Assembly (NCBI GenBank): GCA_947089135.1
Contig: CAMUJF010000001.1
Location: 10,362 to 74,361, forward strand
Source of the DNA: an uncultured Clostridia bacterium
GTDB taxonomy: Bacteria; Bacillota; Clostridia; Oscillospirales; Ruminococcaceae
Length of the DNA stretch: 64,000 nt
Direction: 5' to 3'
The stretch's first letter is position 1; each line of letters opens with the position of its first letter. The notes under the pieces were generated by a model. That model did no database searches and was not told the origin of the DNA. It saw nothing but the letters and a program-made list of their open reading frames with translations. This document shows, in pieces, positions 2,089-61,606 of the stretch. Both the position numbers and the translations under genes were made by a program.

Positions 2089-2171
2089 GCCCCCTTGAGG
2101 GGGCATTGCCAACTATAAAATCAACAGTAAAGTAAAATAGGGGGTGACTCACGCTGCAGGGCGTTCCCTGC
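2089..2171 (+). repeat. GC-hairpin repeat family, copy 1 (full)
   Basis: GCCCCCTTGAGGGGGC (2089-2104), a 35-nt spacer, then GGGGGTGACTCACGCTGCAGGGCGTTCCCTGC. The last base is part of the dnaN stop codon. Confidence 0.85.
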
Positions 2172-3277
2172 TATTCGGACTTCAGTCTCATGGGAAGAAC
2201 AAGGAATGTGTATGTGTTTCCCTCCATGGGAACAATTTTCATGGGCGAAAGTCCGCCGTTGAGCTGAAGCCTTACCTTGTCCGACTCGGAAGCTTTCAGC
2301 GCTTCGGAAAGATAACGGCAGTTAAAGCCTATCTCCACCGGAGGACCGGACATATCCGCCTCCATTTCATCATTAAGCTTTCCGAGAACGGAAGAACAAG
2401 ATATCTTTACCATTCCGTCCTTGAAAAGACACTTTACGGGAGCCTTTGCTTTTTCGTTTATAAGAAGCATACATCTGTCCAGACAGGCTATAAGCTCTCT
2501 CGCGTTTATGATTATCTCGGTGCTGTGCTTTTCGGGTATAGAGCCCTTGTAGTTGTGGAACTCTCCCTCCAGCAGCCTTGACAGAACCATGTACTTGCCT
2601 ATCTCAAAGGTAATATGTTTTTTGGAAACGTGCATTGTAACGCTTTCGTTCTCGTCGTCCTTAAGAAGCTTTGAGACCTCGGACAAGGCTTTTGCCTTTA
2701 CAACAAAATTGTAGTGGTCGTCCGACTCGATATTTTCCGAACGTACCGCAAGACGGTAGCCGTCTATGGCGACAAGGTTGAAATTGTGGTCGATTATATC
2801 AAAAAGCTCTCCCATAAGGATAGGCTTGTTATCGGCGACTGCTACCGCGAAAATTGTCTCGTTTATCATATTTTTCAGCATAGGCTGACGGACTGTGAAA
2901 TTGTCACCCGTGTCGTGATCGGGAATAGAGGGATATTCGTCCGCAGGCATTGCAAGTATTTTATATTCCGCTTTTGAGCCTCTGATAGTTGTGGTGAGAT
3001 TTTCGTCCACCTCTACCTCTATTGTCTCGGAGGGCATTTTTCTGATTATTTCGTTAAACAGTCTGCTATTAAGAATACACTCTCCCACATCATCGGACTG
3101 TACCTCTATCTTAGTCTGGATACCCAGCTCCAAATCGTAGCCGGTAAGCTCCAGAGAGTTTCTGTTAAGATAAAGCTTTACGCCCTCCAAAGCGGATATT
3201 GTTGACTTAGGAGGTACAGCTCTCGATACGTTTGCCAGAGCCTCGTTGATCTCCGCCTGTTTACATATGAATTTCAT
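2171..3277 (-). CDS. dnaN: DNA polymerase III beta sliding clamp
   Basis: 368 aa with typical clamp length and sequence. It lies immediately downstream of dnaA and oriC. Confidence 0.95.
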   Translation of the reverse strand: MKFICKQAEINEALANVSRAVPPKSTISALEGVKLYLNRNSLELTGYDLELGIQTKIEVQSDDVGECILNSRLFNEIIRKMPSETIEVEVDENLTTTIRGSKAEYKILAMPADEYPSIPDHDTGDNFTVRQPMLKNMINETIFAVAVADNKPILMGELFDIIDHNFNLVAIDGYRLAVRSENIESDDHYNFVVKAKALSEVSKLLKDDENESVTMHVSKKHITFEIGKYMVLSRLLEGEFHNYKGSIPEKHSTEIIINARELIACLDRCMLLINEKAKAPVKCLFKDGMVKISCSSVLGKLNDEMEADMSGPPVEIGFNCRYLSEALKASESDKVRLQLNGGLSPMKIVPMEGNTYTFLVLPMRLKSE

Positions 3278-3798
3278 TTTGTATTGAACAGTCCTTTCCT
3301 AATTGAGGTTATAATTTTAAGAAACAAAAAATTAGAAATAAAGTTTTCTTGCGTAAATATCATAAATATGATAATAATAATACAGCAGCAGAAGCAGAAG
3401 AGTTTGAAATGTTGAAACAACCGTTATCCCCCGCAGGGGACTTGCTTTGCTGTTCTACATACTCTCAGGTAAAAACTTGTGGAAAAAAGGAAACATTTTT
3501 TCCTGTGTTGAACAGCTGTTGAATACTTCTATACAATGTCAAAAAAATCTTAAAAGCTTTGTTGAAACTTTTACGGATCAACAAAATGTTGAAAAATACT
3601 TTATACAAAAAGTAATGTAACGGATTTACACTGTATAAAAAGGCAGTTTGCTGTTTTTAACAATGTTTTCAACACCCTGTGGAAAACTGATTTTACAACT
3701 GACTGTAATTTTTGCTTTACAATTTAAACGAAGCTTTTACGTGAGAAAAATAATACCGTTACGGTGTAAAGTTTAAAATGTTGAAATGAGTTTAAATA
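3278..3798. other. oriC candidate (dnaA-dnaN intergenic region with DnaA-box-like repeats and AT-rich tracts)
   Basis: The 521-bp non-coding gap lies between dnaA and dnaN. Two TGTGGAAAA boxes (3478-3486, 3678-3686) are the complement of TTTTCCACA, one mismatch from TTATCCACA. Seven TGTTGAA(A/C/T) repeats occur at 3410, 3506, 3517, 3560, 3587, 3665 (inverted) and 3779. An AT-rich stretch spans 3361-3385. Confidence 0.7.
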
Positions 3799-5145
3799 TT
3801 AATTGCTGCGTATGTTGTTGATGATGTCCTCGATCATTTCCCTTGAACGCGTGTCCTTTTTCATAAGCTTCTCAATGTCGTCGCAGTAGTAGATAATAGT
3901 GCTGTGATCTCTTGCTCCCAGTTCCATTCCTATTGCCTTAAAGGACATATCCGTTACGGATTTCAGCACATAGCAGCTTACTTTCCGGGCAATGGATATC
4001 TGAGCGCTGCGCTTTTTGGAAATGATGTCTTCGGAAGTGACTCCGTAAACGCTTCCCACCTCGTTCAGTATCCTGTCAAAGGTTATTGGAGCGGAGTTTT
4101 CCTCGGAAAGTATCTCCATTACCGCAAGTCTTGCCTGAGCCATTGTGGGGGGAGTGCCCACAAGGTGCTGACCTGCTTTAAGTTTTTTTACGCAGCCTTC
4201 AAGCTGTCTGATATTGGTTTTCAGCTTGTTGGCTATGTACTCCGCAACGTCGTCTGGGAGCTGCAAATTTAAAAGCTCCGCTTTGCGGCGGATTATAGCT
4301 ACTCTTGTTTCAAAGTCTGGTATTGATATATCCGCTATCAGACCCCATTCAAAGCGTGTTCTGATGCGGTCCTCCAGAGTTTTGATATCCTTTGGCGGAC
4401 GGTCCGAGGTCAGCACTATCTGCTTGCCCACCTTGTGGAGCTCGTTAAAGGTATGAAAAAATTCCTCTTGTGTGGAATCCTTGCCGGCAATGAACTGAAC
4501 GTCGTCAAGAAGCAGGATATCCGCGCCCCGGTATTTTTTATGGAACTCGCTTGTGTCTTTTTTCTGCTTGATAGCGTCGATAAGCTCGTTTGTAAAGGTC
4601 TCGCCCGTGACATAGATGATATTCATTGAGGGATTGAGACGCTTTATCTCGTTGCTTATGGCGGTCATAAGGTGTGTCTTTCCCAGTCCCGATGGACCGT
4701 GTATGAAAAGGGGATTGTAGGTGCTTCCCGGTTCCTTTGCGACCGACGTGCAGGCGGCGTATGCAAACTCGTTTGAGCGTCCTACTATAAAGGTATTAAA
4801 GGTATAGTCGTATTCGGCGTTGGAAAAAGATTCTTCAAGTTCTATGCGGCGCTTGTTGGGATCGTCGTCCTCTTCGGCTGAGGAATCGTCGGTGATTATG
4901 CTTATATCCACATCGAAGCCAAGGACTCCCGCAAGAGCCTCTTTGAGTATGCCTGTATAATTTTTTGTAATGATGTTTGCCTGAAATTCGGAAGGTACCG
5001 AAAAACAAGCGACGTCTCCGTCGAGCTTAACGGGGATCAGGGATTTGATCCACAGGCGGTAAGCCACGTCGGTAAGCTCTCCGCGCTCAATTTTTTCCAT
5101 GCAGTAATCCTGCACTTTGTCAAAAACTTCCACAAAGGATTTCAT
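3799..5145 (-). CDS. dnaA: Chromosomal replication initiator DnaA
   Basis: 448 aa with an AAA+ Walker A GPSGLGKTHL and a C-terminal DnaA DNA-binding signature (..GARDHSTIIYY..). Confidence 0.97.
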   Translation of the reverse strand: MKSFVEVFDKVQDYCMEKIERGELTDVAYRLWIKSLIPVKLDGDVACFSVPSEFQANIITKNYTGILKEALAGVLGFDVDISIITDDSSAEEDDDPNKRRIELEESFSNAEYDYTFNTFIVGRSNEFAYAACTSVAKEPGSTYNPLFIHGPSGLGKTHLMTAISNEIKRLNPSMNIIYVTGETFTNELIDAIKQKKDTSEFHKKYRGADILLLDDVQFIAGKDSTQEEFFHTFNELHKVGKQIVLTSDRPPKDIKTLEDRIRTRFEWGLIADISIPDFETRVAIIRRKAELLNLQLPDDVAEYIANKLKTNIRQLEGCVKKLKAGQHLVGTPPTMAQARLAVMEILSEENSAPITFDRILNEVGSVYGVTSEDIISKKRSAQISIARKVSCYVLKSVTDMSFKAIGMELGARDHSTIIYYCDDIEKLMKKDTRSREMIEDIINNIRSN

Positions 5146-5568
5146 ATTTTTATCTTCCCCTTTAGGCGTTCAGGCATATAGGACAGCCCGTTTTGGTTTT
5201 CTTTTGTTCATAAAAAACTAATTCAATATACTATTTATTATAGCATAATTTCCGATTGATTGCAAGGGTTTTGCCATACTTTAAGATCTGTTTTTGTAAA
5301 ATTTTATGTAGTTGATATTGTAAAATTACGCAAAAAAATGCGAAATAATGCGGAATAATCAGAGTAATAGCTGTTTGGGAGATAAACAGAAGAAAATTAT
5401 CAATAAAACAATGAGGAAACGGGGGATAAACGTAATATTAAAGGCTGTGCGATGAAATTTAATTTAATACTTATAGTATATAATTAGCAATTATATACAT
5501 TAATTTAGTTTAAAAGGATAAAAAAGGAATAAATTTCTTTTGCAATTGTGAATTTTTTTTAAAACCTC

Positions 5569-8803: not shown

Positions 8804-8826
8804 ACTAAGTAATTTTTTGCTGTAAT

Positions 8827-8842
8827 TGTTCCACGTGGAACA
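8827..8842. promoter_or_regulatory. parS centromere site
   Basis: TGTTCCACGTGGAACA, a perfect palindrome matching the Firmicute parS consensus TGTTNCACGTGAAACA. It lies in the jag-mnmE spacer. Confidence 0.9.
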
Positions 8843-8860
8843 ATTTAAAAATGTTCATGC

Positions 8861-8898
8861 GGGAGCATGGGAGAATTCCCGTGTTCCCTTTTTCTTTT
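8861..8898 (+). terminator. Rho-independent terminator after jag
   Basis: GGGAGCATGGGA-gaat-TCCCGTGTTCCC (2 mismatches) followed by TTTTTCTTTT. Confidence 0.6.
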
Positions 8899-8915
8899 GG
8901 AGGTTATTGATAATT

Positions 8916-10280
8916 ATGTCAACTGCTGCGGCAATCTCAACTCCCCGCGCTCAGGGGGGGATATCTGTTATACGCATTTCGGGAGAGAGCGCTCTTTCCG
9001 CTGCGGATAAAATTTTTCAGCCTGTCTCCTGCAAGATTCCGCCCTCAGAAATGGAGGGCTACACCTGTGCTTACGGAAAAATCGTAAACGGCTGTGAAAT
9101 TATTGACGACGGGATAGTGACTGTTTTCCGCGCGCCTAAATCCTACACCGGAGAGGACGTTGTTGAAATTTCCTGCCATGGCGGTATTTTTGTTACGGAG
9201 CAGATACTGAGGCTTATTTTTGACAGCGGAGTTGAACCTGCCGGAGTGGGGGAATTTACAAAGCGTGCGTTTCTGAACGGAAAGATGAGTCTTACTCAGG
9301 CGGAGGCTGTTATGGACATTATTTCAGCCGACGGAACCGCGGGACTTCGGTGCGCGGAATCTCTGCGTGACGGCGCATTGTTCCGCCGCATAAAAAAGGT
9401 TTCCGACGGAATGCTTAAGCTGCTCGGTTCTCTTGCGGCATGGGTAGATTACCCGGACGATGATATCCCTGCTGTTGAGGAATATGAGATAGCAGCTGTT
9501 CTCGAAGCGGGAATTGCCGAATTGGGAGGACTTCTTGAATCCTACGAAAGCGGACGTATCGTCAGAGAGGGTGCGGATACTGTTATTGCAGGACGTCCAA
9601 ACGTGGGAAAAAGCACGCTGATGAATCTTTTGGCAGGCTGCGAAAGAAGCATTGTTTCCGATACGGCGGGTACGACCCGTGATGTTGTTGAGGAATCCGT
9701 ACGCTTAGGGGACATTGTTCTGCGGCTTTCCGATACGGCAGGTATTCATGATACCGAAGATACCGTTGAAAGTATCGGTGTAGACAGGGCAAGAAAAAAG
9801 CTTGATTCCGCCGATCTTATTCTTGCGGTTTTCGACGTGGGAAGCATTATTACCGATGAGGACAGAGAGCTTGCGGAAAAGTGCAGAGACCGTAATTCTA
9901 TTGCAGTACTGAATAAGTCCGACTTAGAGCAGAAGTTTGATTTTGCGGAAATTTCCGAGTGTTTTAAAGACAGTGTGACTATTTCCGCCGAAAGGGGAGA
10001 CGGTCTTGATTCTCTTAAAGCAGCGGTTGAGAAGCTTTACGGAATACCCGGATTTTCGGCAGATGTGGGTATACTTGCAAACGAGCGGCAAAGAGGCTGT
10101 GCTCTGAAAGCAAGGCAGTGCTTCACAGAGGCTTTGGAGGCTCTCAAAGCGGGAGCGACCTTTGACGCGGTGACTGTTCTTATAGACGGCGGTGAAAATT
10201 CGCTGCTGGAGCTGACGGGAGAAAAGACCTCCGAAGCTGTTGTGGATGAAGTGTTCTCGCGTTTCTGCGTTGGAAAATAA
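8916..10280 (+). CDS. mnmE: tRNA modification GTPase MnmE
   Basis: G-domain GRPNVGKSTLMN and DTAGI, with the C-terminal CVGK. The start is set to ATG 8916 (RBS GGAGG). The ORF-track start at 8826 lies inside parS. Confidence 0.93.
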   Translation: MSTAAAISTPRAQGGISVIRISGESALSAADKIFQPVSCKIPPSEMEGYTCAYGKIVNGCEIIDDGIVTVFRAPKSYTGEDVVEISCHGGIFVTEQILRLIFDSGVEPAGVGEFTKRAFLNGKMSLTQAEAVMDIISADGTAGLRCAESLRDGALFRRIKKVSDGMLKLLGSLAAWVDYPDDDIPAVEEYEIAAVLEAGIAELGGLLESYESGRIVREGADTVIAGRPNVGKSTLMNLLAGCERSIVSDTAGTTRDVVEESVRLGDIVLRLSDTAGIHDTEDTVESIGVDRARKKLDSADLILAVFDVGSIITDEDRELAEKCRDRNSIAVLNKSDLEQKFDFAEISECFKDSVTISAERGDGLDSLKAAVEKLYGIPGFSADVGILANERQRGCALKARQCFTEALEALKAGATFDAVTVLIDGGENSLLELTGEKTSEAVVDEVFSRFCVGK

Positions 10281-10319
10281 CGGCGTGAAAACGTCAGAAA
10301 AATTGAAAGGACTATTACA

Positions 10320-10862
10320 ATGATAATCACTCTTAAAAAAATAAATTTGTTCAGTAAGGACTACGGAAAGATAAGCCGTCTTTATAAGACTGCTTTTCCT
10401 GTTAATGAAAGAGCTCCCATGTGGTTTATGACAATGAAGTCGGGAAATGAAAACGTCGATTTCTGGGGTATTTATTCCAACAGAAAATGGGTAGGACTTG
10501 CTTATGTGATAAATGAGGGCAGTGCGTCTTATTTGTTTTATCTTGCGCTTTCGGAAAGTATGAGAGGAAAGGGAATAGGCAGCAGGGCTTTGCAGTCGCT
10601 TTTGATACACTACGAGGGACAGCGGCTTTTCCTTGCATTGGAACAGCTTGACGAGTCCGCGGATAATTTTGATGAACGGCAGAAGCGCAGAAAATTTTAC
10701 ATGAAAAACGGTTTAAAGCCGCTGCCGCTGACTATCCGCGAAGCGACGGTGACATACGACGTAATGGGTACGGGGAACGTCAAGCCCGACGAGTACGAAA
10801 GTATGATGAAAAAGTATCTCGGAGCGGCAAGCAGGCTAGTGTCTATGGATATTACAGAATAA
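10320..10862 (+). CDS. GNAT family N-acetyltransferase
   Basis: 180 aa with an acetyl-CoA binding-type motif RGKGIGSRAL. It is inserted between mnmE and mnmG. Confidence 0.7.
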   Translation: MIITLKKINLFSKDYGKISRLYKTAFPVNERAPMWFMTMKSGNENVDFWGIYSNRKWVGLAYVINEGSASYLFYLALSESMRGKGIGSRALQSLLIHYEGQRLFLALEQLDESADNFDERQKRRKFYMKNGLKPLPLTIREATVTYDVMGTGNVKPDEYESMMKKYLGAASRLVSMDITE

Positions 10863-10926
10863 CGGGGATCAAGCTTTTCCGTGATGTTTTGCAAAGCAAA
10901 ACTCGCAGCTGCCGCCAAACGGCAGC

Positions 10927-10942
10927 TGTTCCACGTGGAACA
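10927..10942. promoter_or_regulatory. parS centromere site
   Basis: TGTTCCACGTGGAACA, perfect. It lies in the GNAT-mnmG spacer. Confidence 0.9.
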
Positions 10943-11082
10943 ATTTACGGTTCGGGTCTTCCCGATTTTTGGAGGTCAAGTTTTAAAAAACAAGTTTTTT
11001 AAAACTGCGAGTTTTGTTTCTTCGGCTGTCGCCTCGATTTCCTTGCGGAAACCACAAAACTCAGAAAGGAATGGTCATAAAA

Positions 11083-12954
11083 ATGAGTCATTATATAGAC
11101 AGCTACGACGTGGCTGTTATTGGGGCGGGACACGCCGGTGTAGAAGCCGCTCTTGCTGCGGCGCGGCTTGGAGCAAAAACGGTCATGTTTACAATATCGT
11201 TGGACAATATCGCAAATATGCCCTGCAATCCATCTATCGGAGGAACTGCAAAGGGACATCTTGTTCGCGAAATAGACGCTCTCGGCGGTGAAATGGGAAA
11301 AGCCGCCGACGCTTGTTTTATCCAGAGCCGTATGCTCAACAGGGGAAAAGGTCCTGCGGTACACAGCCTCAGGGTACAGGCGGACAGAGTAAAATACCAT
11401 AACCATATGAAAAAAATCTGCGAAATGCAGGAAAATCTTGACGTTAAACAGGCAGAGGTAACAGAAGTTCTTGCTGAAAACGGTAAGGTTACCGGGATAG
11501 TTACTCATTTGGGCGGAGAATATAAAGTAAAGACCGCAGTAATAGCCACAGGTACTTATCTGAAAGGACTTATCCATGTGGGGGACGTTTCCTATGAAAG
11601 CGGTCCAGACAGCACTTTGCCTGCAAGAGGGCTTTCAGACAGTCTGCGAAAGCTTGGCATTGAGATACGCCGTTTCAAGACCGGTACTCCCAGCCGTGTT
11701 CACCGCCGTTCAATTGATTTTGACAAGCTGGAAATTCAGCACGGGGACAGCGATATTCAGCCGTTTTCATTTGAGACGCCCCGCGATGGACTTGAAAATA
11801 TCGTGCCCTGTTATGTTGCCTACACAAATGAGGAGACTCACCGTGTTATCCGTGAAAATATTCACCGTTCGCCTATGTATTCGGGAAAAATTGAGGGTAT
11901 AGGTCCTCGGTACTGTCCGTCTATAGAAGATAAGATCGTGAGGTTTTCCGAACGTCCGAGACATCAGCTTTTTATAGAGCCGATGGGTCTGGATACGGAG
12001 GAATTTTATTTGCAGGGTATGTCATCTTCGCTGCCCGAAGATGTACAAATTGCATTTTTACGTACAATAAAGGGACTTGAACGCGTTGAAATAATGCGAA
12101 ACGCATACGCTATTGAGTATGACTGCTGCAATCCGCAGGATTTGCGCCATACATTGGAATTTAAAAATATCTGCGGACTTTACGGTGCGGGACAGTTTAA
12201 CGGTACGTCCGGTTACGAAGAAGCCGCCGCCCAAGGTCTTATTGCGGGAATAAACGCGGCGCGGTACTGCAAGGGACAGGATGGTATAACATTAAGCCGG
12301 TCTTCCTCCTATATCGGAACGCTTATCGACGACCTTGTGATAAAAGGCTGTCTCGATCCTTACCGCATGATGACCTCACGAAGCGAATACAGACTTTTGC
12401 TTCGTCAGGATAATGCGGACGAAAGGCTTACCCCTTTGGGATATGAGATAGGACTTATCTCGGAGGAGCGTTACAAATTGTTCCACGTGAAACAATTGCA
12501 GATAAAACAGGAGATTTCACGAGTTAAGTCGAAAACCTTATCTCCGACGGCAGAACTTAACGAGCTTTTGATTCGAAAGGGTACGGCGGAGATTTCCACA
12601 GGAGTGAAGATGAGCGATCTTATCCGACGTCCGCAGATATCCTATGAGGACTTGGCGGTATTTGATACGGGAAGACCGGAGCTTCCCTTTGAAGTTCGGG
12701 AACAGGTGGGTCTGCAAATTGAATACGAGGGATATATCGAACGGCAGCTTGCAGAGGTGGAGCACGTCCGTAAGCTTGAAAATAAACGTCTGCCGCAGCC
12801 CTTTGATTATAAGGAGATAAAGGGTTTAAGCCTTGAATCCCAGGAAAAACTGAACCGTATCCAACCGGAAAATATCGGACAGGCAAGTCGAATATCGGGA
12901 GTCTCGCCTGCGGACGTGAGCGTACTTATAATTTGGCTTTCCGCCAGCAAGTAA
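11083..12954 (+). CDS. mnmG: tRNA uridine 5-carboxymethylaminomethyl modification enzyme MnmG (GidA)
   Basis: FAD motif [12 protein letters not shown]. The start is set to ATG 11083 ([10 protein letters not shown]..), 12 nt after AAAGGA. Confidence 0.95.
12479..12494. promoter_or_regulatory. parS centromere site (intragenic, in mnmG)
   Basis: TGTTCCACGTGAAACA, an exact match to the B. subtilis consensus. Confidence 0.88.
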
Positions 12955-12966
12955 GGGGGAACAGAT

Positions 12967-13680
12967 ATGTCAGTATTACCCGAATTTGAAAAGTTTGCGG
13001 AGTTTTTTTCCGCGTTGAATTTTGAAATTACAGAAGAACAGTACGCACAGTTTTCATCGTATGCTTCTGCTCTTGTGGAGTGGAACGAAAAAATGAATCT
13101 TACGGGAATAACCGATCCCGATGGAATTGCGGTCAAGCATTTTCTGGACAGTATTCTGCCATTGAAATTTTTGGATATCCCAAAAGGCGAAAGCATTATA
13201 GACGTAGGTACGGGAGCGGGATTTCCGGGCGTGCCTATAAAAATATACCGTCCCGATGTGAGATTGACGCTGTTGGACAGTCTCAATAAGCGCATTAACT
13301 TTCTTTCGGCAGCTTGCAGCGAAGCAAATATTGAAGCAAAGTTTGTTCATGCAAGAGCCGAAGAGGGAGGACGGAACAATGCCTACAGAGAAAAATTCGG
13401 AGCAGCTTTTGCGAGAGCGGTTGCGGCAATGCCTGTGCTTGCGGAATACTGCCTGCCGTTTGTTAAGATGGGCGGAATATTTGCAGCAATGAAAGGTCCC
13501 AATGAAAATTACAGGGACGGAGAAAATGCCGTAAAGCTTTTGGGAGGAGAAATCGCGGACGTTAAGGAATATTCGCTTCCAAACGGAGACAAGCGCGTAC
13601 TTATAATAGTGCGTAAAATTATGCCGACAGCTGAGAAGTATCCAAGAAACGGCGGTCAGATATCCAAAAAGTCATTATAA
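12967..13680 (+). CDS. rsmG: 16S rRNA (guanine527-N7)-methyltransferase RsmG (GidB)
   Basis: 237 aa with SAM motif DVGTGAGFPG and synteny after mnmG. Confidence 0.93.
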   Translation: MSVLPEFEKFAEFFSALNFEITEEQYAQFSSYASALVEWNEKMNLTGITDPDGIAVKHFLDSILPLKFLDIPKGESIIDVGTGAGFPGVPIKIYRPDVRLTLLDSLNKRINFLSAACSEANIEAKFVHARAEEGGRNNAYREKFGAAFARAVAAMPVLAEYCLPFVKMGGIFAAMKGPNENYRDGENAVKLLGGEIADVKEYSLPNGDKRVLIIVRKIMPTAEKYPRNGGQISKKSL

Positions 13681-13684
13681 TAAT

Positions 13685-13700
13685 TGTTCCACGTGAAACA
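13685..13700. promoter_or_regulatory. parS centromere site
   Basis: TGTTCCACGTGAAACA, 5 nt after the rsmG stop. Confidence 0.88.
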
Positions 13701-13735
13701 TTTTTAAACAAAGCCGCGGCTATTTTTATGGAAAA

Positions 13736-13751
13736 TGTTCCACGTGGAACA
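13736..13751. promoter_or_regulatory. parS centromere site
   Basis: TGTTCCACGTGGAACA, 51 bp from the previous site and just upstream of the soj promoter. Confidence 0.9.
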
Positions 13752-13781
13752 TTTTTTTATTTGCTAAATTTGCAAAAATTA

Positions 13782-13810
13782 TTGCAATTGGTAAGAAAAT
13801 ATGGTATAAT
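13782..13810 (+). promoter_or_regulatory. sigma-A promoter of soj-spo0J
   Basis: TTGCAA (13782-13787), a 17-nt spacer and an extended -10 TGGTATAAT (13802-13810). Confidence 0.65.
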
Positions 13811-13841
13811 TAAAGCTACTGAAACTGAAAGGAAGACTGTT

Positions 13842-14639
13842 ATGGCAATTATAATTGCTGTCGCAAATCAAAAGGGCGGTGTGGGAAAATCCACCACTGT
13901 TGTTAATCTTGCGGCGTGCCTGGGACAGAGAAAGAAAAAAGTCCTTTGTGTGGACATGGACGCCCAGGGAAATACTACAAGCGGATTCGGTATCCGCAAA
14001 AAAAATGTGGGAATATCTACATACGACGCGCTTCTGGGGCTTCGGAGAATACAAGAAGCCGTTATAAAAACCGAATTTGAGAATGTATGGCTCGTACCCG
14101 CGACTTCTTCTCTTGCCGCTGCCGATATTGAGCTTATCGAGGTGGACAATATGCAGAAGCGCATGAAAATGCAGCTTCTCACCATAAAGCAGGATTACGA
14201 TTATATACTGCTTGACTGCCCGCCGTCGCTGTCGCTGATTCCTGTAAATGCGCTGTGCGCTTGCGATACGGTGCTTGTGCCGATGACCTGCGAATATTTT
14301 GCAATGGAGGGACTTTCCCAGCTTGTGGAATCAATTCGGCTGGTGAAGCAGCGGTACAACCCCACAATAGATATTGAAGGAATACTTTTTACCATGTTTG
14401 ACGGACGCCTCAACCTCACAAGTCAGGTTGTAAGCGAGGTAAAAAAGCATTTCCCGAAAAAGATGTTCAAGACCGTGATACCGAGAAACGTGCGCATATC
14501 AGAGGCTCCCAGTTTTGGAAAGCCCGTTGTGTACTACGATAAAAGCTCCCGCGGCGCGGAGGCTTACGAAATGTTTACGGAAGAGCTTCTTAAACGGCAC
14601 AAGGCTGCCGAAAAAGCTCTTGCCGCGTCGAAAAAATAA
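13842..14639 (+). CDS. soj: ParA family chromosome partitioning ATPase Soj
   Basis: Deviant Walker A KGGVGKST. The start is set to ATG 13842 (MAIIIAVANQKGG..) behind GAAAGGAAG. Confidence 0.94.
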   Translation: MAIIIAVANQKGGVGKSTTVVNLAACLGQRKKKVLCVDMDAQGNTTSGFGIRKKNVGISTYDALLGLRRIQEAVIKTEFENVWLVPATSSLAAADIELIEVDNMQKRMKMQLLTIKQDYDYILLDCPPSLSLIPVNALCACDTVLVPMTCEYFAMEGLSQLVESIRLVKQRYNPTIDIEGILFTMFDGRLNLTSQVVSEVKKHFPKKMFKTVIPRNVRISEAPSFGKPVVYYDKSSRGAEAYEMFTEELLKRHKAAEKALAASKK

Positions 14640-14655
14640 TGAAAAGGGGGTAAAA

Positions 14656-14671
14656 TGTTCCACGTAGAACA
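14656..14671. promoter_or_regulatory. parS centromere site (one mismatch)
   Basis: TGTTCCACGTAGAACA in the soj-spo0J spacer. Confidence 0.8.
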
Positions 14672-14731
14672 TTTTTGATCAAAACCGCGATGTTTTGCGA
14701 GGTAAAACACGCATCTGCTGCTTGGACAGTT

Positions 14732-14747
14732 TTTTTTACGTGGAACA
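14732..14747. promoter_or_regulatory. degenerate parS / half-site
   Basis: TTTTTTACGTGGAACA has an intact right arm and 3 mismatches in the left arm. It lies 76 bp from the previous site. Confidence 0.45.
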
Positions 14748-17644: not shown

Positions 17645-17765
17645 AAAAATCAATCCTTTCAAAAGCTTGCAAACATTTTATATAATAAATACAACTCAGA
17701 GCGGCAGAATTTTTCATGGAAAGAAAAATTTTTCAAAAAATTTGTGGGATATTAGCATTACACAT

Positions 17766-17795
17766 GGGGTGACTCAGCCTGCGGAGGCTCTACGC
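17766..17795 (+). repeat. GC-hairpin repeat family, copy 2 (module B only)
   Basis: GGGGTGACTCAGCCTGCGGAGGCTCTACGC ends exactly at the dnaJ stop codon (17796-17798). Confidence 0.7.
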
Positions 17796-18950
17796 TTACT
17801 TCTCGAATGCCTGCTTGATCTTATCAAAGAAATTGTTCCGCTTTTTGTAATTTTTGTTTTCGTCAAGGGACTCGTCAAAGGCTTTCAGCAGGTCTTTTTG
17901 TTTTTTGGTAAGATTGCCCGGAACTTCTATGGTAACATGAACGAACTGGTTTCCCCGGTCGCTGCGGTTTAGCTTTTTGATACCCTTGCCTTTGAAGCGG
18001 AAAACCGTTCCCGGCTGTGTACCCTCGGGAATAGTGTAGGAAACAGTTCCGTCGATCGTGGGAACTTCAACCTCGGCGCCCAGAGCCGCCTGAACAAAAG
18101 TTATGGGCATTTCGGTGTGAACATCGTAGCCGTCCCTCTCAAAGATAGCGTCTGGACGAACGGTAACGGTAATAAGCAAATCGCCAGAGGGACCGCCGTT
18201 TATTCCTCCGTGACCTTGACCGGAGGTGCGTATGGTCTGACCGTCGTCAATACCCGCAGGTATCGAAACGCTGATAGTTTTCTCAACGCTGACACGTCCG
18301 TTGCCATGACATTTCGAGCAGGGATTTTTTATTATAGTACCCTTTCCTCCACACCTTGTACATGGCTTCTGGGAGGATATCATGCCGAACGGCGTGCGCT
18401 GAGTTACCTTTATCTGACCCGTTCCGTGACAGTCGGGACAGGTATCTGCCGACGAACCCGCTGCCGCACCCGAACCGTTACAGTCTGGACATTTCTCCAT
18501 ACGAGAAATGTGAATGTCGGTGCTGATACCCTTGCAGGCATCCATAAAGCTGATAACAACGCTTTTCTGAATATCCTGACCGCGCCTCGGAGCGTTGGGA
18601 TTGCTTCTTGACGAAGAACCGCCGAAGCCTCCGAAAAAGCTGGAGAAAATGTCGCTGATATCGCCCATGTCTCCGAAGCCGCCGGAGAAACCGCCTCCGT
18701 AGCCTCCTCCGCCGTAGGAGGGGTCTACACCTGCGTGACCGAATTGATCGTACCTCGAACGCTTTTCTGGGTCGGACAGTACCTCGTAAGCCTCGTTGAC
18801 CTCCTTAAATTTTTCCTCGGCTTCCTTGTTGTCGGGGTTGAAGTCAGGGTGATATTTTCTTGACAGTTTTCTGAACGCCTGTTTTAGTTCGTCCTCGGAA
18901 GCCCCTTTCTGAAGCCCCAGCACCTCGTAATAATCTCTTTTATCAGCCAT
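17796..18950 (-). CDS. dnaJ: Molecular chaperone DnaJ
   Basis: J-domain with KYHPD, a G/F-rich region and four CxxCxGxG zinc motifs. The start is set to ATG 18950 ([12 protein letters not shown]). Confidence 0.96.
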
Positions 18951-19072
18951 ATGGGCATTTCCTTTCATGTAATGTAAGTATATATATTGTAAATTATTTC
19001 TAATTGTATATCCGTCATAAAACAGCTTTCGGGCGGAAATTTTCCGCCCTTGGCTTATTCCTGATTGATTTA

Positions 19073-19176
19073 CCCGCCCCCTTGAGGGGGCTTGATAAGG
19101 TTAAAATTTTTTGTATTTATCTTTGGGGGAGACTTTGTCAGCGCTTCGCTGCAGACTGCCGCGGGGCGTTCCCCGC
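19073..19176 (+). repeat. GC-hairpin repeat family, copy 3 (full)
   Basis: CCCGCCCCCTTGAGGGGGC, a 33-nt spacer, then GGGGGAGAC...GCGGGGCGTTCCCCGC. It ends at the dnaK stop (19177-19179). Module B has a 20-nt insertion. Confidence 0.85.
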
Positions 19177-21036: not shown

Positions 21037-21084
21037 AAAAATCATTTCCTTTCTGTTTTATCTATTATATTATAATTATTTTGA

Positions 21085-21167
21085 CCCGCCCCTTTGAGGG
21101 GGCTTGACAATGTTGAAATCTATTGTATTTTTCTTTGGGGGTGACATCGCCCGCGGGGGCTCCCCGC
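21085..21167 (+). repeat. GC-hairpin repeat family, copy 4 (full)
   Basis: CCCGCCCCTTTGAGGGGGC, a 33-nt spacer, then GGGGGTGACATCGCCCGCGGGGGCTCCCCGC. It ends at the grpE stop (21168-21170). Confidence 0.85.
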
Positions 21168-25443: not shown

Positions 25444-25527
25444 GCGGGGAACGCCCCGCGGCGAAAGTCACCCTCGCAGATAATTACAGCATACTGTTAT
25501 TCCGCATAGCCCCATCAAGGGGGGAGG
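25444..25527 (-). repeat. GC-hairpin repeat family, copy 5 (full, inverted)
   Basis: The plus strand reads GCGGGGAACGCCCCGC..GTCACCC, a 35-nt spacer, then GCCCCATCAAGGGGGG. It lies 9 nt downstream of the stop of the 25536 gene. Confidence 0.8.
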
Positions 25528-25535
25528 GATAGATT

Positions 25536-52312: not shown

Positions 52313-52357
52313 GCGGGACGGGAGCGCCGTCTCCTGCGTGTGTTCCCTGTCCCGCTA
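52313..52357 (-). repeat. GC hairpin overlapping the mreD stop codon (possibly related to repeat module B)
   Basis: On the minus strand: TAG-CGGGACAGGGAAC...TCCCGTCCCGCTTTAT. This is a 12-bp stem whose first base pair uses the G of the stop codon. Confidence 0.5.
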
Positions 52358-52930
52358 CTCTCTTACTATGTCGTCGGACTTTTCCTCGATGTAACTCTCG
52401 TCGATAAGACCGAAATGTCGTGAAAGAAATCTGATAAGAAAGAAAAAGGGTATTACCGCTATAGAGGTATAGATCATAACGGGCAGGAATTCGCCGGTGA
52501 AAATTTTTCCCGCCGAATCATACTCCCATATGGCGTAGTAAAAAAAGTAGTGTATAAACCCCTGCACAAGAACCGCCGCCGCGTTCAGCGCGATAATGTT
52601 AAGGATATGCCTGCGCATGAAAAAGTGGAAAAGCAGGGAAGCCGACAGACAGCACCACATCATAATAATACCGCTCAGACCGATAAGCGTGCCTTGGGCG
52701 GTGTCAAGGAGAAGTCCCGCCGCGCAGCCCATAAGCGCGGAATCAAAGGGTTCCTCAAACATTGCTATGCACATTGCCGCGGGAATGACAAAAAGCGGCG
52801 TGCGGAGCATAAACTGCTTCTGAGGCGCCGTTGTCATATATATATAGGATATCACAGTCAGCAGACCGTACAGTATCCATCTGATGACCGTGTTCCTTTT
52901 TTCCTTTTTTCGTTTCAGATCTATATTCAC
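52355..52930 (-). CDS. mreD: Rod shape-determining protein MreD
   Basis: Polytopic membrane protein downstream of mreC. The start is provisionally set to GTG 52930 (RBS AAAGGG 8 nt upstream). The ORF-track ATG at 53029 would add a low-complexity leader. Confidence 0.7.
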   Translation of the reverse strand: MNIDLKRKKEKRNTVIRWILYGLLTVISYIYMTTAPQKQFMLRTPLFVIPAAMCIAMFEEPFDSALMGCAAGLLLDTAQGTLIGLSGIIMMWCCLSASLLFHFFMRRHILNIIALNAAAVLVQGFIHYFFYYAIWEYDSAGKIFTGEFLPVMIYTSIAVIPFFFLIRFLSRHFGLIDESYIEEKSDDIVRE

Positions 52931-52943
52931 ATTAAGCACCCTT

Positions 52944-52978
52944 TTAGATGATAGAGAATAGAGGTTAGAGGATAGAAA
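52944..52978. repeat. tandem heptamer array (5 units) in the mreC-mreD spacer
   Basis: The plus strand reads TTAGATG ATAGAGA ATAGAGG TTAGAGG ATAGAAA. This is the same GAGGNTA-type unit as at 23504-23552, in opposite orientation relative to the operon. Confidence 0.8.
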
Positions 52979-53080
52979 ACAGGGCTTCACAAATTTGCAT
53001 GGGACGGATCTCCCGTTCCGTATCGGCATTTAGAGAATATGCGGGAGTGGACATCCTTTCCCTACAAACCCAATACCTAC

Positions 53081-53109
53081 GGTGCATGCGCCTGCGGGGA
53101 CTCCCCGCC
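53081..53109 (+). repeat. GC-hairpin repeat family, copy 6 (module B only)
   Basis: GGTGCATGCGCCTGCGGGGACTCCCCGCC ends 0-1 nt from the mreC stop codon (53110-53112). Confidence 0.65.
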
Positions 53110-53970
53110 TCAGCCCGCAGGGGCTCCCTGCCCGCCCTGCCCGTTGAAGCTGGTTATTACGAATACCGTTGAAACGTTGTCGGGGTCTATGGCAGGCTTT
53201 ATTACTGCGTACTTTGATAAGCCGCTGTCCTCCATACCTACTTCGGTAACCGTGCCGATAAGCTGATTTGCGGGAAAGGTCTCGCTTCCCGAGGTAACGA
53301 TTATGTCCCCCTCTTTAACGTCGGCGTTCTTGCTGATATAGCTCATGCGGCAGCAGCCGTTTTCGGCAAGCTCATAGTCCCCCTCGATGATACCTGTCGC
53401 CTTTGTGCGGACGATAGTCACTCCCACAGCCGTTTTCGGGGAGTACAGCGTGCGCACCCTGCTTGTGCTTCTTGCCACGTCGTAGCAGATACCCACCAGT
53501 CCCGAGGAAGTGATAACAGGATCATAGGGAGCGATCCCGTCGTCGCTGCCCTTGTCAATGGTAAATGAATGATACGGGTCGTTCGTGGTACGGGCTATTA
53601 CCGTGCATGGGGGAGAAAAAACGTAATCGTCGTATTCCTCCTTAAGTCCCAGCAGTACGCGGAGCTGCTCGTTCTCGCGGGTTATTTTGTCATAGTCTAT
53701 GATGTCGTTGTAGACCTCGTTAAGGGTCTCTTTAAGCTCAATGTTTTCTTTGTAGTACTTTTCCGCGTTGAAAAGCATATCCAGCGTAGAGGTCACCTTG
53801 TCTGATATCTGAGTAGATATCTTCTGAAAGGGCTCGAACAGAAAGCTGAACACCGACGCGCTGTCGGGGCTGTAGCCTCCCTGAGTGAGGCTGTAGACCG
53901 CTATGCCCAGAATCACAGCCATAAGCGCGGCAAGGATCTTAAATTTTGTTGTTTTAAAAAAATCCTTCAC
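53110..53970 (-). CDS. mreC: Rod shape-determining protein MreC
   Basis: 286 aa with an N-terminal TM helix, a coiled coil and a beta-barrel domain. It has a Gly-rich tail. Confidence 0.9.
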   Translation of the reverse strand: MKDFFKTTKFKILAALMAVILGIAVYSLTQGGYSPDSASVFSFLFEPFQKISTQISDKVTSTLDMLFNAEKYYKENIELKETLNEVYNDIIDYDKITRENEQLRVLLGLKEEYDDYVFSPPCTVIARTTNDPYHSFTIDKGSDDGIAPYDPVITSSGLVGICYDVARSTSRVRTLYSPKTAVGVTIVRTKATGIIEGDYELAENGCCRMSYISKNADVKEGDIIVTSGSETFPANQLIGTVTEVGMEDSGLSKYAVIKPAIDPDNVSTVFVITSFNGQGGQGAPAG

Positions 53971-60515: not shown

Positions 60516-60695
60516 TGGTATCCCCTCCGATTAAATTTTTCAGTATTAAGTACATTATACGGCTGCCGTCGGAGACAGCCGATAACTGCAAAATCAAAAA
60601 ATTATCCGCCGAAACGGATTTAGGAGCATTTGCCTATTGAAAAACCCGAAAAAGTGTGCTATATTTAAATAGTTAAGCGAAGAACGTTTTCTGTT

Positions 60696-61391
60696 TTATT
60701 TGTCGGAATTTATTATCATCTGCATACGGGCTTCGCTGTTCTTTATAACGTTGAGCAGCGACGACGCGGAGCTTGGGTATTCCTCCGACAGGGAGTTCGC
60801 CGTAATAAGAGTTGCGTCCCCGGCTTCGCCCGAAGCCGCTGCCGACGCAGAAGCTGCCGCCGCGTTTGCTTCGCACATTGCCATTGCGGCAGCGGAGGAA
60901 CCCATGGCGGGTATCTCCTCAACGGTAAAAAATCTTTTGTCGTTTTTGGAATTGGCTGAATGCACCACGCGGAACATTTTATATACCGCCAGCATGAGGT
61001 AGGCGGAAACCTCCTTTAAAACTATGGAACTTCCGGTTTTCCGCACGAGAGAGAACAGCACCGTTACCGCGTTCACAACAAGCTTTTTGTTGAACGCAGC
61101 CATTACCCCTCCGGGATCCATTTTTTCCTTTCCGCTCATGTCAGGTTCGGGAATATCCTCATAGGAAATAGTTTTCCCCGCAGGCTCGGGGGAGCGTCCC
61201 AGCAGATAGTCGCAGGACACATTATAGTAATCCGCAGTTTTTACGAGAAATTCAAGACCGCATTCTCTTATACCCTTTTCGTAGTGAGAGAGCAGCGCCT
61301 GGGAGATACCCAGATCGGCGGCGGCTTTTTTCTGACTTACGCCGCGTTCCTTTCTCAGCAGGGTAATTATTCTCGGAAAGTCCGAATTCAT
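60696..61391 (-). CDS. XRE family helix-turn-helix transcriptional regulator
   Basis: N-terminal HTH ..LRKERGVSQKKAAADLGISQALLSHYEKG.. with a C-terminal domain of unknown function. Confidence 0.85.
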   Translation of the reverse strand: MNSDFPRIITLLRKERGVSQKKAAADLGISQALLSHYEKGIRECGLEFLVKTADYYNVSCDYLLGRSPEPAGKTISYEDIPEPDMSGKEKMDPGGVMAAFNKKLVVNAVTVLFSLVRKTGSSIVLKEVSAYLMLAVYKMFRVVHSANSKNDKRFFTVEEIPAMGSSAAAMAMCEANAAAASASAAASGEAGDATLITANSLSEEYPSSASSLLNVIKNSEARMQMIINSDK

Positions 61392-61519
61392 CGTGTCACC
61401 TCCTGAAATTTGTTTCTACATACAGTAAATTATACAGCATTGCGTACAATTTGTAAATAGTTTCGTGTAAAAAAAGTCGATAAATGTTTCATAAGTTTTT
61501 CTGTAATTGTACACAAATC

Positions 61520-61606
61520 GGGGCGGGGAAGCCCCCGCAGGCTGAGTCACCCCCAATGTAACGTCACTGCAATTATTTACAAATCGAGCCCCCTCAAGGG
61601 GGCGGG
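61520..61606 (-). repeat. GC-hairpin repeat family, copy 7 (full, inverted)
   Basis: The plus strand reads GCGGGGAAGCCCCCGCAGGCTGAGTCACCCCC, a 33-nt spacer, then GCCCCCTCAAGGGGGCGGG. It lies between divergent genes. Confidence 0.85.

Follow-up and report, generated by a model that had tools for sequence, protein, structure and literature searches.

Family of Two-Hairpin Repeats in Gut Oscillospiraceae

Repeats of ~90 bases with two GC hairpins are a real and previously undescribed family in the genomes of uncultured gut Oscillospiraceae. They were analyzed from a window of 64,000 nucleotides (the whole stretch of DNA studied), for which an earlier note had proposed a dispersed repeat family; the many copies in related genomes bear this out, and the pattern is not due to chance. 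The core is composed, in this order, of AAAyTTACCC, the hairpin GCCCCCTTGAGGGGGC (hairpin A, GCCCCC-TTGA-GGGGGC), an AT-rich spacer of 31-36 nt, the 9-mer GGGGGTGAC (G-box), a linker, and a second GC hairpin (hairpin B). The core scan revealed at least 137 copies in at least 116 loci and the window, collapsing to at least 103 independent sites, and these totals are lower bounds; the scan of the collection demanded hairpin A and the G-box. The core is carried by at least 14 MAG species, which are Oscillospiraceae/"Ruminococcus" MAGs. No Rfam family was matched by the repeat core and nothing was found in the literature for the hairpin sequence; the earlier note had likewise recognized no described family.

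Hairpin A and the G-box at a fixed distance are the invariant parts, and the sequence of hairpin B varies freely. Among the matches listed, the G-box follows every hairpin A (137/137), although this invariance is partly by design since the scan required both. Independent of the scan design are only the presence of hairpin A or its variant ahead of 126 of the 128 G-boxes among the matches listed, and a few variants of hairpin A reached via the G-box. The proposal that the terminal hairpins alone are recognized is incomplete, as the G-box is also invariant and hairpin B is not. The constant spacer of 33-35 nt described earlier is true of the window; among the 131 non-redundant copies listed it is 31-36 nt, with the mode at 33-34, and no consensus structure was detected in it. 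A semi-conserved yTTAC occurs on the 5' side of both hairpin A and the G-box, each time at a distance of 3 nt. The per-base conservation of the tetranucleotide is only 58-76%, and young subfamilies differ at that motif (TTCAC, TCTAC, CATAC, and CTTCC).

Young copies, near-identical at unrelated loci of one MAG (JAAVHI, JAIEDQ, and Lapin-025), indicate recent spread. Long mosaic arrays of the core and other GC hairpin modules are seen in other MAGs, and fit the likeness to BIME suggested earlier. The genome of the window appears to have an old, inactive set of these repeats, its 64 kb containing three remnants besides the five diverged copies:

2079..2173, plus strand: full copy 1; hairpin A 2089-2104, 35-nt spacer, G-box GGGGGTGAC 2140-2148, hairpin B GCAGGGCGTTCCCTGC 2156-2171
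17753..17796, plus strand: partial copy without hairpin A; spacer end, G-box variant TGGGGTGAC 17765-17773, linker TCAGCC, decayed hairpin B GCGGAGGCTCTACGC
19064..19176, plus strand: full copy 2; hairpin A 19076-19091, 33-nt spacer, G-box variant GGGGGAGAC 19125-19133, extra hairpin 19139-19151, hairpin B 19161-19176
21081..21167, plus strand: full copy 3; hairpin A variant GCCCCTTTGAGGGGGC 21088-21103 (one G.T pair), 33-nt spacer, G-box 21137-21145, hairpin B 21153-21167
25444..25528, minus strand: full copy 4, partly decayed; hairpin A CCCCCCTTGATGGGGC 25509-25524, G-box variant GAGGGTGAC 25467-25475, hairpin B 25444-25459
52313..52354, plus strand: remnant; B-arm repeats (..GTGTTCCCTGTCCCG)
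53094..53131, plus strand: remnant; tandem B-type hairpins GCGGGGACTCCCCGC 53094-53108 and GCAGGGGCTCCCTGC 53117-53131
61521..61614, minus strand: full copy 5; hairpin A 61588-61603, 33-nt spacer, G-box 61546-61554, hairpin B 61523-61538

The five full copies known from the earlier note were all recovered, including by an nhmmer profile trained solely on copies from outside the window (21081-21168 with the E-value 7e-21, 61524-61614, 19068-19143, 2079-2171, and 25444-25528). The profile also recovered the partial copy at 17753-17796 (E-value 4e-5), which had been reported as a B-only copy at 17766-17795, and nothing else in the whole window. The other B-only copy (53081-53109) was missed by the profile; B-type hairpins are present there, but they are two in tandem, and the site is regarded as a remnant because L108 carries a full element at the orthologous position. 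When three mismatches are allowed, hairpin A gives 9 strand-matches at 5 window sites, versus 0.34 expected by chance. Copies 2 and 3 are 83% identical over 75 nt, close to the ~85% estimated earlier. The 20-nt insertion reported in copy 2 is a third hairpin (19139-19151), at whose position other genomes carry a different hairpin, CTTGCAC-n-GTGCAAG. No terminal inverted repeats (TIRs) were found on the window copies, as the earlier note had described, but the core lies inside TIR-bearing MITEs in several MAGs.

Compensatory Changes in Hairpin B

The pairing of hairpin B is maintained by compensatory changes. There are 31 different stems among the 126 non-redundant copies listed; 116 stem cells are compensatory, and 741 of the 756 are paired, versus 570 with shuffled arms. 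At one orthologous site, genomes 95-97% identical have GCGGGG/CCCCGC and GTGGGG/CCCCAC, respectively. An alternative hairpin of the B region is kept in 72/87 copies through covariation of the linker with the B loop (AGCC is found where the loop is GCT, CGCC where it is CGTT, and a terminal G where the arm is GCGGCG), although this covariation traces back to just two or three founders of subfamilies. On the element's own strand, not the gene's, there are 17 G.T pairs and 5 A.C mismatches, which is weak and non-independent evidence.

Position and Orientation Relative to Genes

The family sits mostly just behind genes and is oriented against them. In the window, the last base of hairpin B of copy 1 is overlapped by the dnaN stop TAG (2171-2173), and hairpin B is directly followed by the dnaK stop TAA (19177-19179) in copy 2 and by the grpE stop TAA (21168-21170) in copy 3, while the decayed hairpin B of the partial copy abuts the dnaJ stop TAA (17796-17798). 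All four genes are on the minus strand, and thus these copies are antisense and directly behind genes; copy 1 separates dnaN from recF and is antisense to the two genes. The abutment of hairpin B to stop codons in the window had been missed in the earlier note. The remnant at 52313-52354 abuts the minus-strand ORF 52355-53029 at its stop codon (52355-52357). The tandem hairpins at 53094-53131 are on either side of the mreC stop (53110-53112, minus strand), and the second is inside the mreC ORF and translated as the MreC C-terminal tail. Copy 4 is between a flavin reductase gene and mntP, co-directional with both, and the likely mntP promoter (25373-25345) is downstream of it. Copy 5 is flanked by divergent genes, for an HTH regulator (60696-61391, minus strand) and a histidine phosphatase (61613-62302, plus strand), consistent with its earlier description.

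Among the matches listed, 58 independent sites have a convergent gene, and at 19 of these a stop codon falls exactly on the B end, typically as TAA followed by GCGGGG or TAG followed by CGGGG. Genes for tmRNA, tRNA-Ser, and tRNA-Thr likewise have their 3' ends at the outer end of hairpin B. Abutment is specific to the B end (24/74 versus 2/34 at the A end, p = 0.003), and copies between co-directional genes are antisense in 35 cases and sense in 12 (p = 0.001); about a quarter of the sites are between divergent genes (all among the matches listed). The replichore bias considered in the earlier note was not seen in the window, where orientation follows the neighboring gene (4 antisense, 1 sense) and the replichore split is 3 to 3, with the origin taken between dnaA and rpmH. 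Copies inside operons (hrcA-grpE-dnaK-dnaJ and dnaN-recF) cannot be strong terminators. An intrinsic terminator was rejected, as T-tracts are found in 0-15% of copies across the family, extending to the family what the earlier note had seen in the window.

Turnover between Related Species

Related species differ at orthologous gene ends, where copies have been gained, lost, or replaced. At the dnaN end (copy 1), an orthologous element is present in L020 and absent in the closer L042. No element is found in L088 and L071 at the grpE end (copy 3), and L089 has merely a short unrelated hairpin at the site of copy 4. At the dnaK end (copy 2), the L088 copy shares the G-box variant, but by the author's count its spacer is just about half identical while the adjoining intergenic DNA is close to 90% identical, which indicates replacement and not in-place divergence. 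At the dnaJ end, where the window has the partial copy, the element of L088 is full and its hairpin B is present twice in tandem. The site 52313-52354 corresponds to a full element in L108 and to a native hairpin only in L114, and the hrcA gene end is also subject to turnover. A filled site in L026 and empty sites in L065 and L082 have flanks of 95-98% identity. What distinguishes filled from empty sites is replacement accompanied by further small deletions, as opposed to clean insertion, and no target duplication was found in these comparisons. Thus, presence varies between orthologous loci; neither fixation everywhere nor any other observation that the earlier note had named as contrary to a dispersed repeat was encountered.

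Comparison with Known Repeats

On balance, the family is best explained as a non-autonomous mosaic palindromic repeat, comparable to REP/BIME and small MITEs, which probably spread through the chromosomes of an Oscillospiraceae clade. Like REP/BIME of Enterobacteria and Pseudomonas, these are short GC-rich extragenic palindromes, many per genome, often located behind genes and within operons, forming mosaic arrays with other motifs, with no TIR or target duplication, with compensatory stem changes, and with hairpins lacking T-tracts. The REP hairpins of E. coli protect upstream mRNA. The present family differs in having two unlike hairpins 31-36 nt apart, a 9-mer that is invariant and not palindromic, a Firmicute host, and one end exactly at stop codons or tRNA ends. 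It has neither inverted REPIN doublets nor a GTAG-type invariant tetranucleotide, and no RAYT was found among the 2395 ORFs of the window and 0.88 Mb of loci with a set of Y1 query sequences.

ERIC/IRU and Correia (CREE) elements are MITEs co-transcribed with neighboring genes, and ERIC has orientation-dependent effects on mRNA. They are similar as non-coding repeats of ~100-190 nt near gene ends, and in some MAGs the units that enclose the core carry TIRs of 14-20 nt and end in TA. However, TIRs are lacking from the window copies, conservation is internal (hairpin A and G-box) and not terminal, and insertions replace flanking DNA with no target duplicated. Miniature IS200/IS605 elements (PATEs) share subterminal hairpins, a short motif 5' of a hairpin, and the lack of TIRs and target duplication, whereas here the left and right hairpins are unlike, there is no constant target sequence or sign of replication-strand bias, and no TnpA was found in 0.88 Mb and the window. 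BOX, RUP, and SPRITE from Streptococcus and bcr1 from Bacillus cereus are also modular small repeats of Firmicute intergenic regions; some are transcribed within 3' UTRs, and bcr1 and RUP behave as MITEs. The present family has another module set and no sequence relation to them (nothing in Rfam, no literature match), and stop-codon abutment is not known from them.

Possible Origin and Role

In JAAVHI, JAIEDQ, MGBC124430, and Lapin-025, the core is within MITEs of 188-290 nt with TIRs of 14-20 nt, bounded by TAAATTTTGATTTA(GCGGGG) ... (CCCCGC)TAAATCAAAATTTA with TA at both outer ends. This setting points to a different kind of mobilization there, and the window copies could be old remnants, without TIRs, of a decayed MITE whose mobility depended on a transposase of the DDE type (Tc1/IS630-like, TA target). 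In the core, the conserved left flank AAAyTTACCC agrees with the end of the MITE motif, and motif-like left flanks are retained by window copies 2, 3, and 5. Such an origin is nevertheless rather improbable. The motif is missing from the window (one 2-mismatch match versus 1.3 expected) and from one or both sides of many copies in the same MAGs, and it varies between lineages while the core does not. The boundaries are ambiguous as the sequence outside the TIRs is itself partly palindromic, the 0.88 Mb of loci yielded neither a transposase ORF nor a full-length element, and the core is possibly a mere passenger or neighbor of another repeat. The earlier note favored an IS200/IS605 derivative or REP units moved by RAYT, a Y1 HUH transposase acting on single-stranded hairpins. 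The two different hairpins with no TIR or target duplication in the window, the yTTAC motifs, and the loop context CTTG|A, which may resemble nick sites of HUH Rep proteins, would fit this. Group 1 RAYTs were reported from Clostridia (PMC5581495). Yet no Y1 transposase was found, with a set of Y1 query sequences, among 2395 ORFs from the window and 0.88 Mb of element-bearing loci, and these loci include no multi-copy ORF near elements. Hairpins A and B are unlike each other, the tetranucleotide is only 58-76% conserved and differs between young subfamilies, orientation in the window follows the gene and not the replichore, and there is no constant flanking tetranucleotide of the IS200/IS605 target type, no copy cut off at the hairpin loop, and no REPIN-type inverted doublet. 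Nothing in this analysis supports the IS200/IS605 or RAYT link, which is doubtful.

A host function is also unlikely: a cis-acting RNA element, possibly a domesticated repeat, serving as a 3'-UTR or intercistronic device for mRNA ends, stability, or processing. On the gene's strand, B' comes after the stop codon, followed by the C-rich box GUCACCCCC and A', and the two mutually exclusive hairpins of the B region would be a switch. The compensatory changes even between genomes 95-97% identical, the linker-loop covariation, the exact meeting of only the B end with stop codons and tRNA/tmRNA 3' ends, the orientation bias, and the persistence of copies in essential operons agree with such a device. 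Close relatives, however, do not conserve presence at a given gene end, sites between divergent genes are not 3' UTRs, the spacer has no consensus structure, the covariation comes from few founders, and the G.T excess is on the element's strand. A small RNA gene or promoter cassette, in which hairpin A ends upstream transcription, the spacer is a sigma-70 promoter, the RNA starts from GGGGG, and hairpin B terminates it, is extremely unlikely. A spacer of 33-34 nt has room for -35 and -10 boxes 17 nt apart plus a short discriminator, and copies 1 (TTGCCA-16-TAAAGT) and 3 (TTGACA-16-TATTTT) are promoter-like, but genuine promoters of the window are canonical TTGACA-17-TATAAT, and a T-tract follows hairpin B in just 9% of copies. 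The sigma-70 promoter was rejected as a family-wide feature, with 2 of the 131 copies listed qualifying versus a mean of 3.2 for shuffled spacers, and none on the other strand.

The mosaic repeat itself has to accommodate the lack of a mobilizing enzyme in the window and the 0.88 Mb of loci; hairpin recombination or template switching could give the same pattern without a transposase, and the interspecies conservation of hairpin A and G-box with the compensation in hairpin B could mean a host function. For such a mosaic repeat, a trans-acting protein would recognize the pair of hairpin A and GGGGGTGAC held 31-36 nt apart, and hairpin B may be a structural module of any sequence provided it pairs. 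New copies would replace DNA immediately behind a gene without target duplication. They would survive mainly in the orientation where the transcript reads B' first, after a stop codon or a mature tRNA/tmRNA 3' end. Two GC hairpins would thereby enter the 3' UTR or intercistronic RNA, where they may act as barriers to 3' exonucleases as in REP, and not as terminators.

Layout of the element and its copies in the window

The window represents Firmicute core chromosome, with recF, dnaN, dnaA, rpmH, gidA/B, parA/B, hrcA-grpE-dnaK-dnaJ, rpoB/C, and mreB/C. Five sites in it had been claimed in the earlier note as full copies of a repeat family. Read individually, they share one common layout, and a profile built only from copies in other genomes recovered these five full copies and the partial copy at 17753-17796, and nothing else in the window. 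With at most 3 mismatches, hairpin A is found at 5 window sites, against 0.34 matches expected by chance.

Layout of the window copies, from 5' to 3'
Foot 5' of hairpin A: C-rich, usually (A)CCC
Hairpin A: GCCCCC-TTGA-GGGGGC
Spacer: AT-rich, 33-35 nt
G-box: the 9-mer GGGGGTGAC
Linker from the G-box to hairpin B: 6-7 nt
Hairpin B: a second GC hairpin, the 3' end of the layout

Copies and remnants in the window
2079-2173: copy 1, behind dnaN
17753-17796: partial copy, behind dnaJ
19064-19176: copy 2, behind dnaK
21081-21167: copy 3, behind grpE
25444-25528: copy 4
52313-52354: further remnant
53081-53109: two tandem B-type hairpins
61521-61614: copy 5, between divergent genes as originally described

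Hairpin B reaches the minus-strand stop codon of dnaN (copy 1), dnaK (copy 2), grpE (copy 3), and dnaJ (partial copy), abutting or overlapping it; thus, these copies are antisense and lie directly behind genes. The extra sequence in copy 2, described before as a 20-nt insertion in B, is present and is read here as an optional extra hairpin, which can form between the G-box and B. Two sites had been described as B-only copies. The one at 17766-17795 belongs to the partial copy found with the profile, while the other is the pair of tandem B-type hairpins at 53081-53109, which the profile misses. In a related MAG (L108), full elements are located at the gene ends matching this pair and the remnant at 52313-52354.

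Two other palindromic features were observed in the window. Seven copies of the palindrome TGTTCCACGTG(G/A)AACA are located in and between mnmE, gidA, gidB, and parA/parB near the origin (8826-16643). As the palindrome matches what we take to be the Bacillus parS consensus, TGTTNCACGTGAAACA, this stretch is probably a dense ParB-binding cluster. At two loci from other MAGs (L092 and L118), parS-like sites directly flank copies of the hairpin element. On the minus strand, a 16-bp hairpin followed by TTTTTATTT (25187-25222) is located between a canonical promoter (25373-25345) and the mntP start codon, just 5' of the latter. It resembles a terminator of the kind found in leaders or riboswitches, yet no Rfam family, yybP-ykoY included, was found there at the gathering score.

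Distribution in other genomes

In GTDB species representatives, at least 116 stretches have hairpin A and the G-box separated by 28-40 nt. The window and the listed loci together contain at least 137 copies, at least 131 of them non-redundant, which represent at least 103 independent sites in at least 14 MAGs. Among the matches listed, all MAGs are classified as Oscillospiraceae, Ruminococcus sp., or Clostridia and originate from animal guts, with a single exception. This MAG, labelled Prevotella sp. (JAMPIC01), includes three element-bearing contigs (L035, L046, and L075), and because all other matches listed are from Clostridia, a binning error or a wrong label on the MAG is the probable explanation. 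Among representative genomes, MGBC124430 (uncultured Oscillospiraceae) is the closest, with 81-91% nucleotide identity over aligned segments. A search of IMG/VR for phage or viral carriage gave no match.

No Rfam covariance model matched in the window at gathering thresholds, and nothing relevant was found at three element-bearing loci with E-values up to 1. With both Rfam modes and ARAGORN giving nothing, a known RNA family, a tRNA-like element, and a tmRNA-like element were rejected; the earlier note had not recognized a described family either. None of the papers searched contained the hairpin sequence, and keyword searches of the literature were uninformative.

Constant and variable parts of the element

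The G-box follows every hairpin A (137/137 among the copies listed), and A or a variant of it stands before 126 of 128 exact G-boxes, a count that does not depend on the selection of loci. In the 131 non-redundant copies listed, the spacer measures 31-36 nt (mostly 33-34 nt); it starts with TTnACAAAgTTAA and ends with ATyTTACnTT. The left flank of the core has the consensus AAAyTTACCC. A yTTAC motif 3 nt 5' of hairpin A has a conservation of only 58-76% per base and differs between subfamilies.

Hairpin A (GCCCCC/GGGGGC, loop TTGA) is unlike hairpin B (mostly GCGGGG/CCCCGC, loop GCT or CGTT). Of 134 copies, 127 have hairpin B, which is variable in sequence; it shows 31 stem types and 116 compensatory cells, and 741 of 756 cells are paired, versus 570 with the arms shuffled. 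The linker covaries with the loop of B, based on only two or three subfamily founders, so that 72 of 87 copies can form a second hairpin that excludes B. REPIN-type inverted doublets were found for neither A nor B. Mutual information and RNAalifold recovered only hairpin A, on either strand, and no conserved spacer structure; whole-copy MFE z-scores are modest (-0.6 to -2.1). G.T pairs exceed A.C mismatches by 17 to 5, favouring the element's own strand, but this evidence on the strand of folding is not relied on, since many cases share ancestry. In the best-supported reading, sequence-specific constraint acts on hairpin A and the G-box, and B is a structural module.

Inverted repeats and arrays around the core

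Four MAGs (JAAVHI, JAIEDQ, MGBC124430, and Lapin-025) carry a 14-nt AT palindrome after the core, either TAAATCAAAATTTA or a variant of it, and often another before the core. Many copies in these MAGs are inside units of 188-290 nt with terminal inverted repeats (TIRs) of 14-20 nt. The units have TA at both outer ends, which is indistinguishable from the TIR itself. Around the window copies, neither AT palindromes nor TIRs are present.

The core also constitutes the end of long arrays of other GC hairpin modules in Lapin-025 (L030, L038, L051, L067, L079, L096, L019, L053, L106, L109, and L120) and JAAVHI (L013, L025, L040, and L113), while the window includes no such array. Modules preceding the core include CGAGCTGGGCTCAGCTCG, GGCGGCTTCGCCGCC, AAGGGGCGCTGCCCCTT, and CGCCGTCTGCGGACGGCG. 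Many array contigs have one of their ends no more than 100-200 nt away from the core, indicating that the arrays break assemblies.

A different tandem arrangement was observed in L050 (7300-7700, minus strand), where three 140-nt units, each composed of a full element and about 55 nt repeating the 3' end of the upstream gene, immediately precede the ribosome-binding site of the gene that follows. Spacers of this lineage are not AT-rich. In MGBC124430, the dnaA-rpmH origin region includes a 2.5-kb segment with two element copies (L042, 1380-3893), where the window has 150 nt (5306-5458); judging from its translated ORF, the segment appears to carry an aspartate-oxidase-like gene.

Position at gene ends

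Between co-directional genes, the independent sites listed are antisense in 35 cases and sense in 12 (p = 0.001). Of the 58 listed sites with a convergent downstream gene, 19 have that gene's stop codon exactly at the end of B, typically with the junction TAA/GCGGGG, or TAG/CGGGG with the G shared; the TTA seen at the B end is this stop codon of the neighbouring gene. Hairpin B also abuts the 3' ends of tmRNA (L016, 4323-4339), tRNA-Ser (L049, 1253-1269), and tRNA-Thr (L086, about 4095) genes, convergent as at stop codons, and the B stems at the two tRNA genes are unique sequences. Exact abutment is specific to the B end (24/74, against 2/34 for the A end, p = 0.003). Among the sites listed at which genes were called on both sides, 21 of 83, roughly a quarter, are between divergent genes. 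In the window, three copies are on the leading and three on the lagging strand, yet they are 4 to 1 antisense to genes, in a small sample and with the origin position inferred.

Some genes extend into the element. In L088 (about 1530-1600) and L071, HrcA reads into it, and its tail, ...GEPPQAESPP (...GEPPQAESPPSEKQ), is encoded by element DNA; the window HrcA ends with ...DDPDDENDD. The window MreC is translated through one B hairpin (3' end 53110-53140) and has the tail ...GRAGREPLRA. At several loci, B or its 3' arm is tandemly repeated on the gene side. The gene-side region of B evidently changes fast and may grow until selection stops it at the gene boundary. The G-box GGGGGTGA is one base off what is presumably the ideal Firmicute Shine-Dalgarno sequence, GGAGGTGA, and selection against such a box in mRNAs could explain the antisense bias.

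Turnover at orthologous sites

The presence of the element varies at orthologous loci, which is in line with the dispersed repeat proposed in the earlier note. In the dnaK operon, the window and two related genomes (L088 and L071) have it at different gene ends.

The element at gene ends of the dnaK operon
hrcA end: absent in the window, present in L088 and L071
grpE end: present in the window, absent in L088 and L071
dnaK end: present in the window and L088; in L071, a remnant and a copy after the native terminator
dnaJ end: partial in the window, full in L088, only a decayed hairpin in L071

L020 (80% identity) has the dnaN copy, which unrelated sequence replaces in the closer L042 (88%). 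L026 is filled, and L065 and L082, whose flanks are 95-98% identical, are empty; rather than inserting cleanly, the element replaced sequence there, with a small additional deletion. The two dnaK copies of the window and L088 are about half identical in their spacers, versus close to 90% in the adjacent intergenic DNA (counted manually on the alignment), which speaks against divergence in place and for re-insertion or conversion involving another member of the family. No target-site duplication was seen in filled/empty pairs, where the element had replaced sequence, nor by eye between the left and right flanks of the listed copies, and the one recent core insertion (L026) has no duplication. 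An apparent CTCCCCGC repeat in L026 did not hold up as a target duplication. The copies have no constant flank.

Search for a mobilizing enzyme

No Y1 transposase was detected among the ORFs of the window and 0.88 Mb of loci (0.94 Mb) with approximate sequences of IS608 TnpA, ISDra2 TnpA, and E. coli RAYT as queries, a single-copy RAYT elsewhere in the genome being outside this sample. In the same 0.94 Mb, there is no multi-copy ORF near elements, all clusters being orthologues. The 29 largest ORFs of the window include no transposase; they are housekeeping genes or have no Pfam match. Copies truncated at the loop of hairpin A, as predicted for an HUH nick there, were not convincingly found.

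Nature of the family

The family belongs to a known kind of element, of which it is a variant not described before. One unusual feature needs explanation: one end of the element is exactly at gene 3' boundaries. The earlier observation stands, and its interpretation holds in part. The five readings compared below partly overlap and are not exclusive. The best-supported one, favoured with modest confidence, is a REP/BIME-like, non-autonomous mosaic repeat family. As in REP/BIME, short GC-rich palindromes, here hairpins A and B, are highly repeated outside genes. At the 5' foot, where REPs have a GTAG-type tetranucleotide, lies the variable yTTAC; inverted doublets like REPINs were not found, and mosaic arrays occur in Lapin-025 and JAAVHI. 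REP/BIME units are accompanied by a single-copy RAYT gene flanked by the repeats; the window and loci searched gave no Y1 ORF with the approximate queries. In this reading, copies persist mainly where the transcript of the neighbouring gene reads B', hairpin B on the gene's strand, first. Recognition by a trans-acting enzyme is suggested, and by analogy with REP the element may serve as an RNA 3' barrier.

Derivation from IS200/IS605 or RAYT, the proposal of the earlier note, has a plausible architecture, and RAYTs were reported in Clostridia (PMC5581495), but nothing found supports it, and the orientation in the window appears to follow genes, not the replichore; this origin is considered improbable. 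In PATEs, one TnpA binds subterminal hairpins that are alike at the two ends, whereas A and B are unlike. PATEs insert 3' of a fixed tetra- or pentanucleotide without duplication; duplication is likewise lacking here, but so is a constant flank. The orientation of PATEs is tied to the replication strand; the small window sample, with its inferred origin position, is evenly split. A decayed TIR-type MITE is similarly doubtful: TIRs, the mark of IS630/Tc1-like MITEs, surround the core in some other MAGs but not the window copies. The spacers of copies 1 and 3 resemble a sigma-70 promoter, yet they are the only two of 131 with -35/-10 at 16-18 nt, against 3.2 in shuffled spacers, and a promoter or sRNA cassette was rejected as very improbable. 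An intrinsic or bidirectional terminator was rejected; T-tracts, counted per hairpin and strand, follow in 0-15% of 125 copies, in line with the lack of a consistent T-tract in the earlier note. As copies also lie within operons, the element is not an ordinary terminator.

The exact abutment of B at stop codons and at tRNA and tmRNA ends is due to either a targeting mechanism or an RNA function at the 3' end. That the element is an RNA device of the host, in 3' UTRs or between cistrons, is unlikely. It is also possible, if rather unlikely, that the core is a new, gene-end-seeking kind of element. Its B end would then be placed precisely at gene 3' boundaries (stop codons and tRNA/tmRNA 3' ends) by hairpin-directed HUH nicking, template switching at hairpins, or another process. 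The native terminator region would be overwritten and sometimes the last codons as well, as the HrcA and MreC tails may illustrate, and the paired alternative hairpins with the Shine-Dalgarno-like box could confer a strand-specific RNA function.

Dispersed palindromic repeats are well studied in Proteobacteria; to our knowledge, few repeat families have been described in gut Clostridia, themselves known mostly from MAGs. The present family marks a clade, breaks MAG assemblies, with Lapin-025 contigs repeatedly ending at arrays, and changes how housekeeping genes end, as in hrcA and mreC, whose last codons it rewrites. These genomes would be better annotated with a covariance or profile model of the core. 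The abutment of the B end is a clean, testable signature, and a targeting mechanism or a 3'-end RNA function, if true, would either way be new for Firmicutes.
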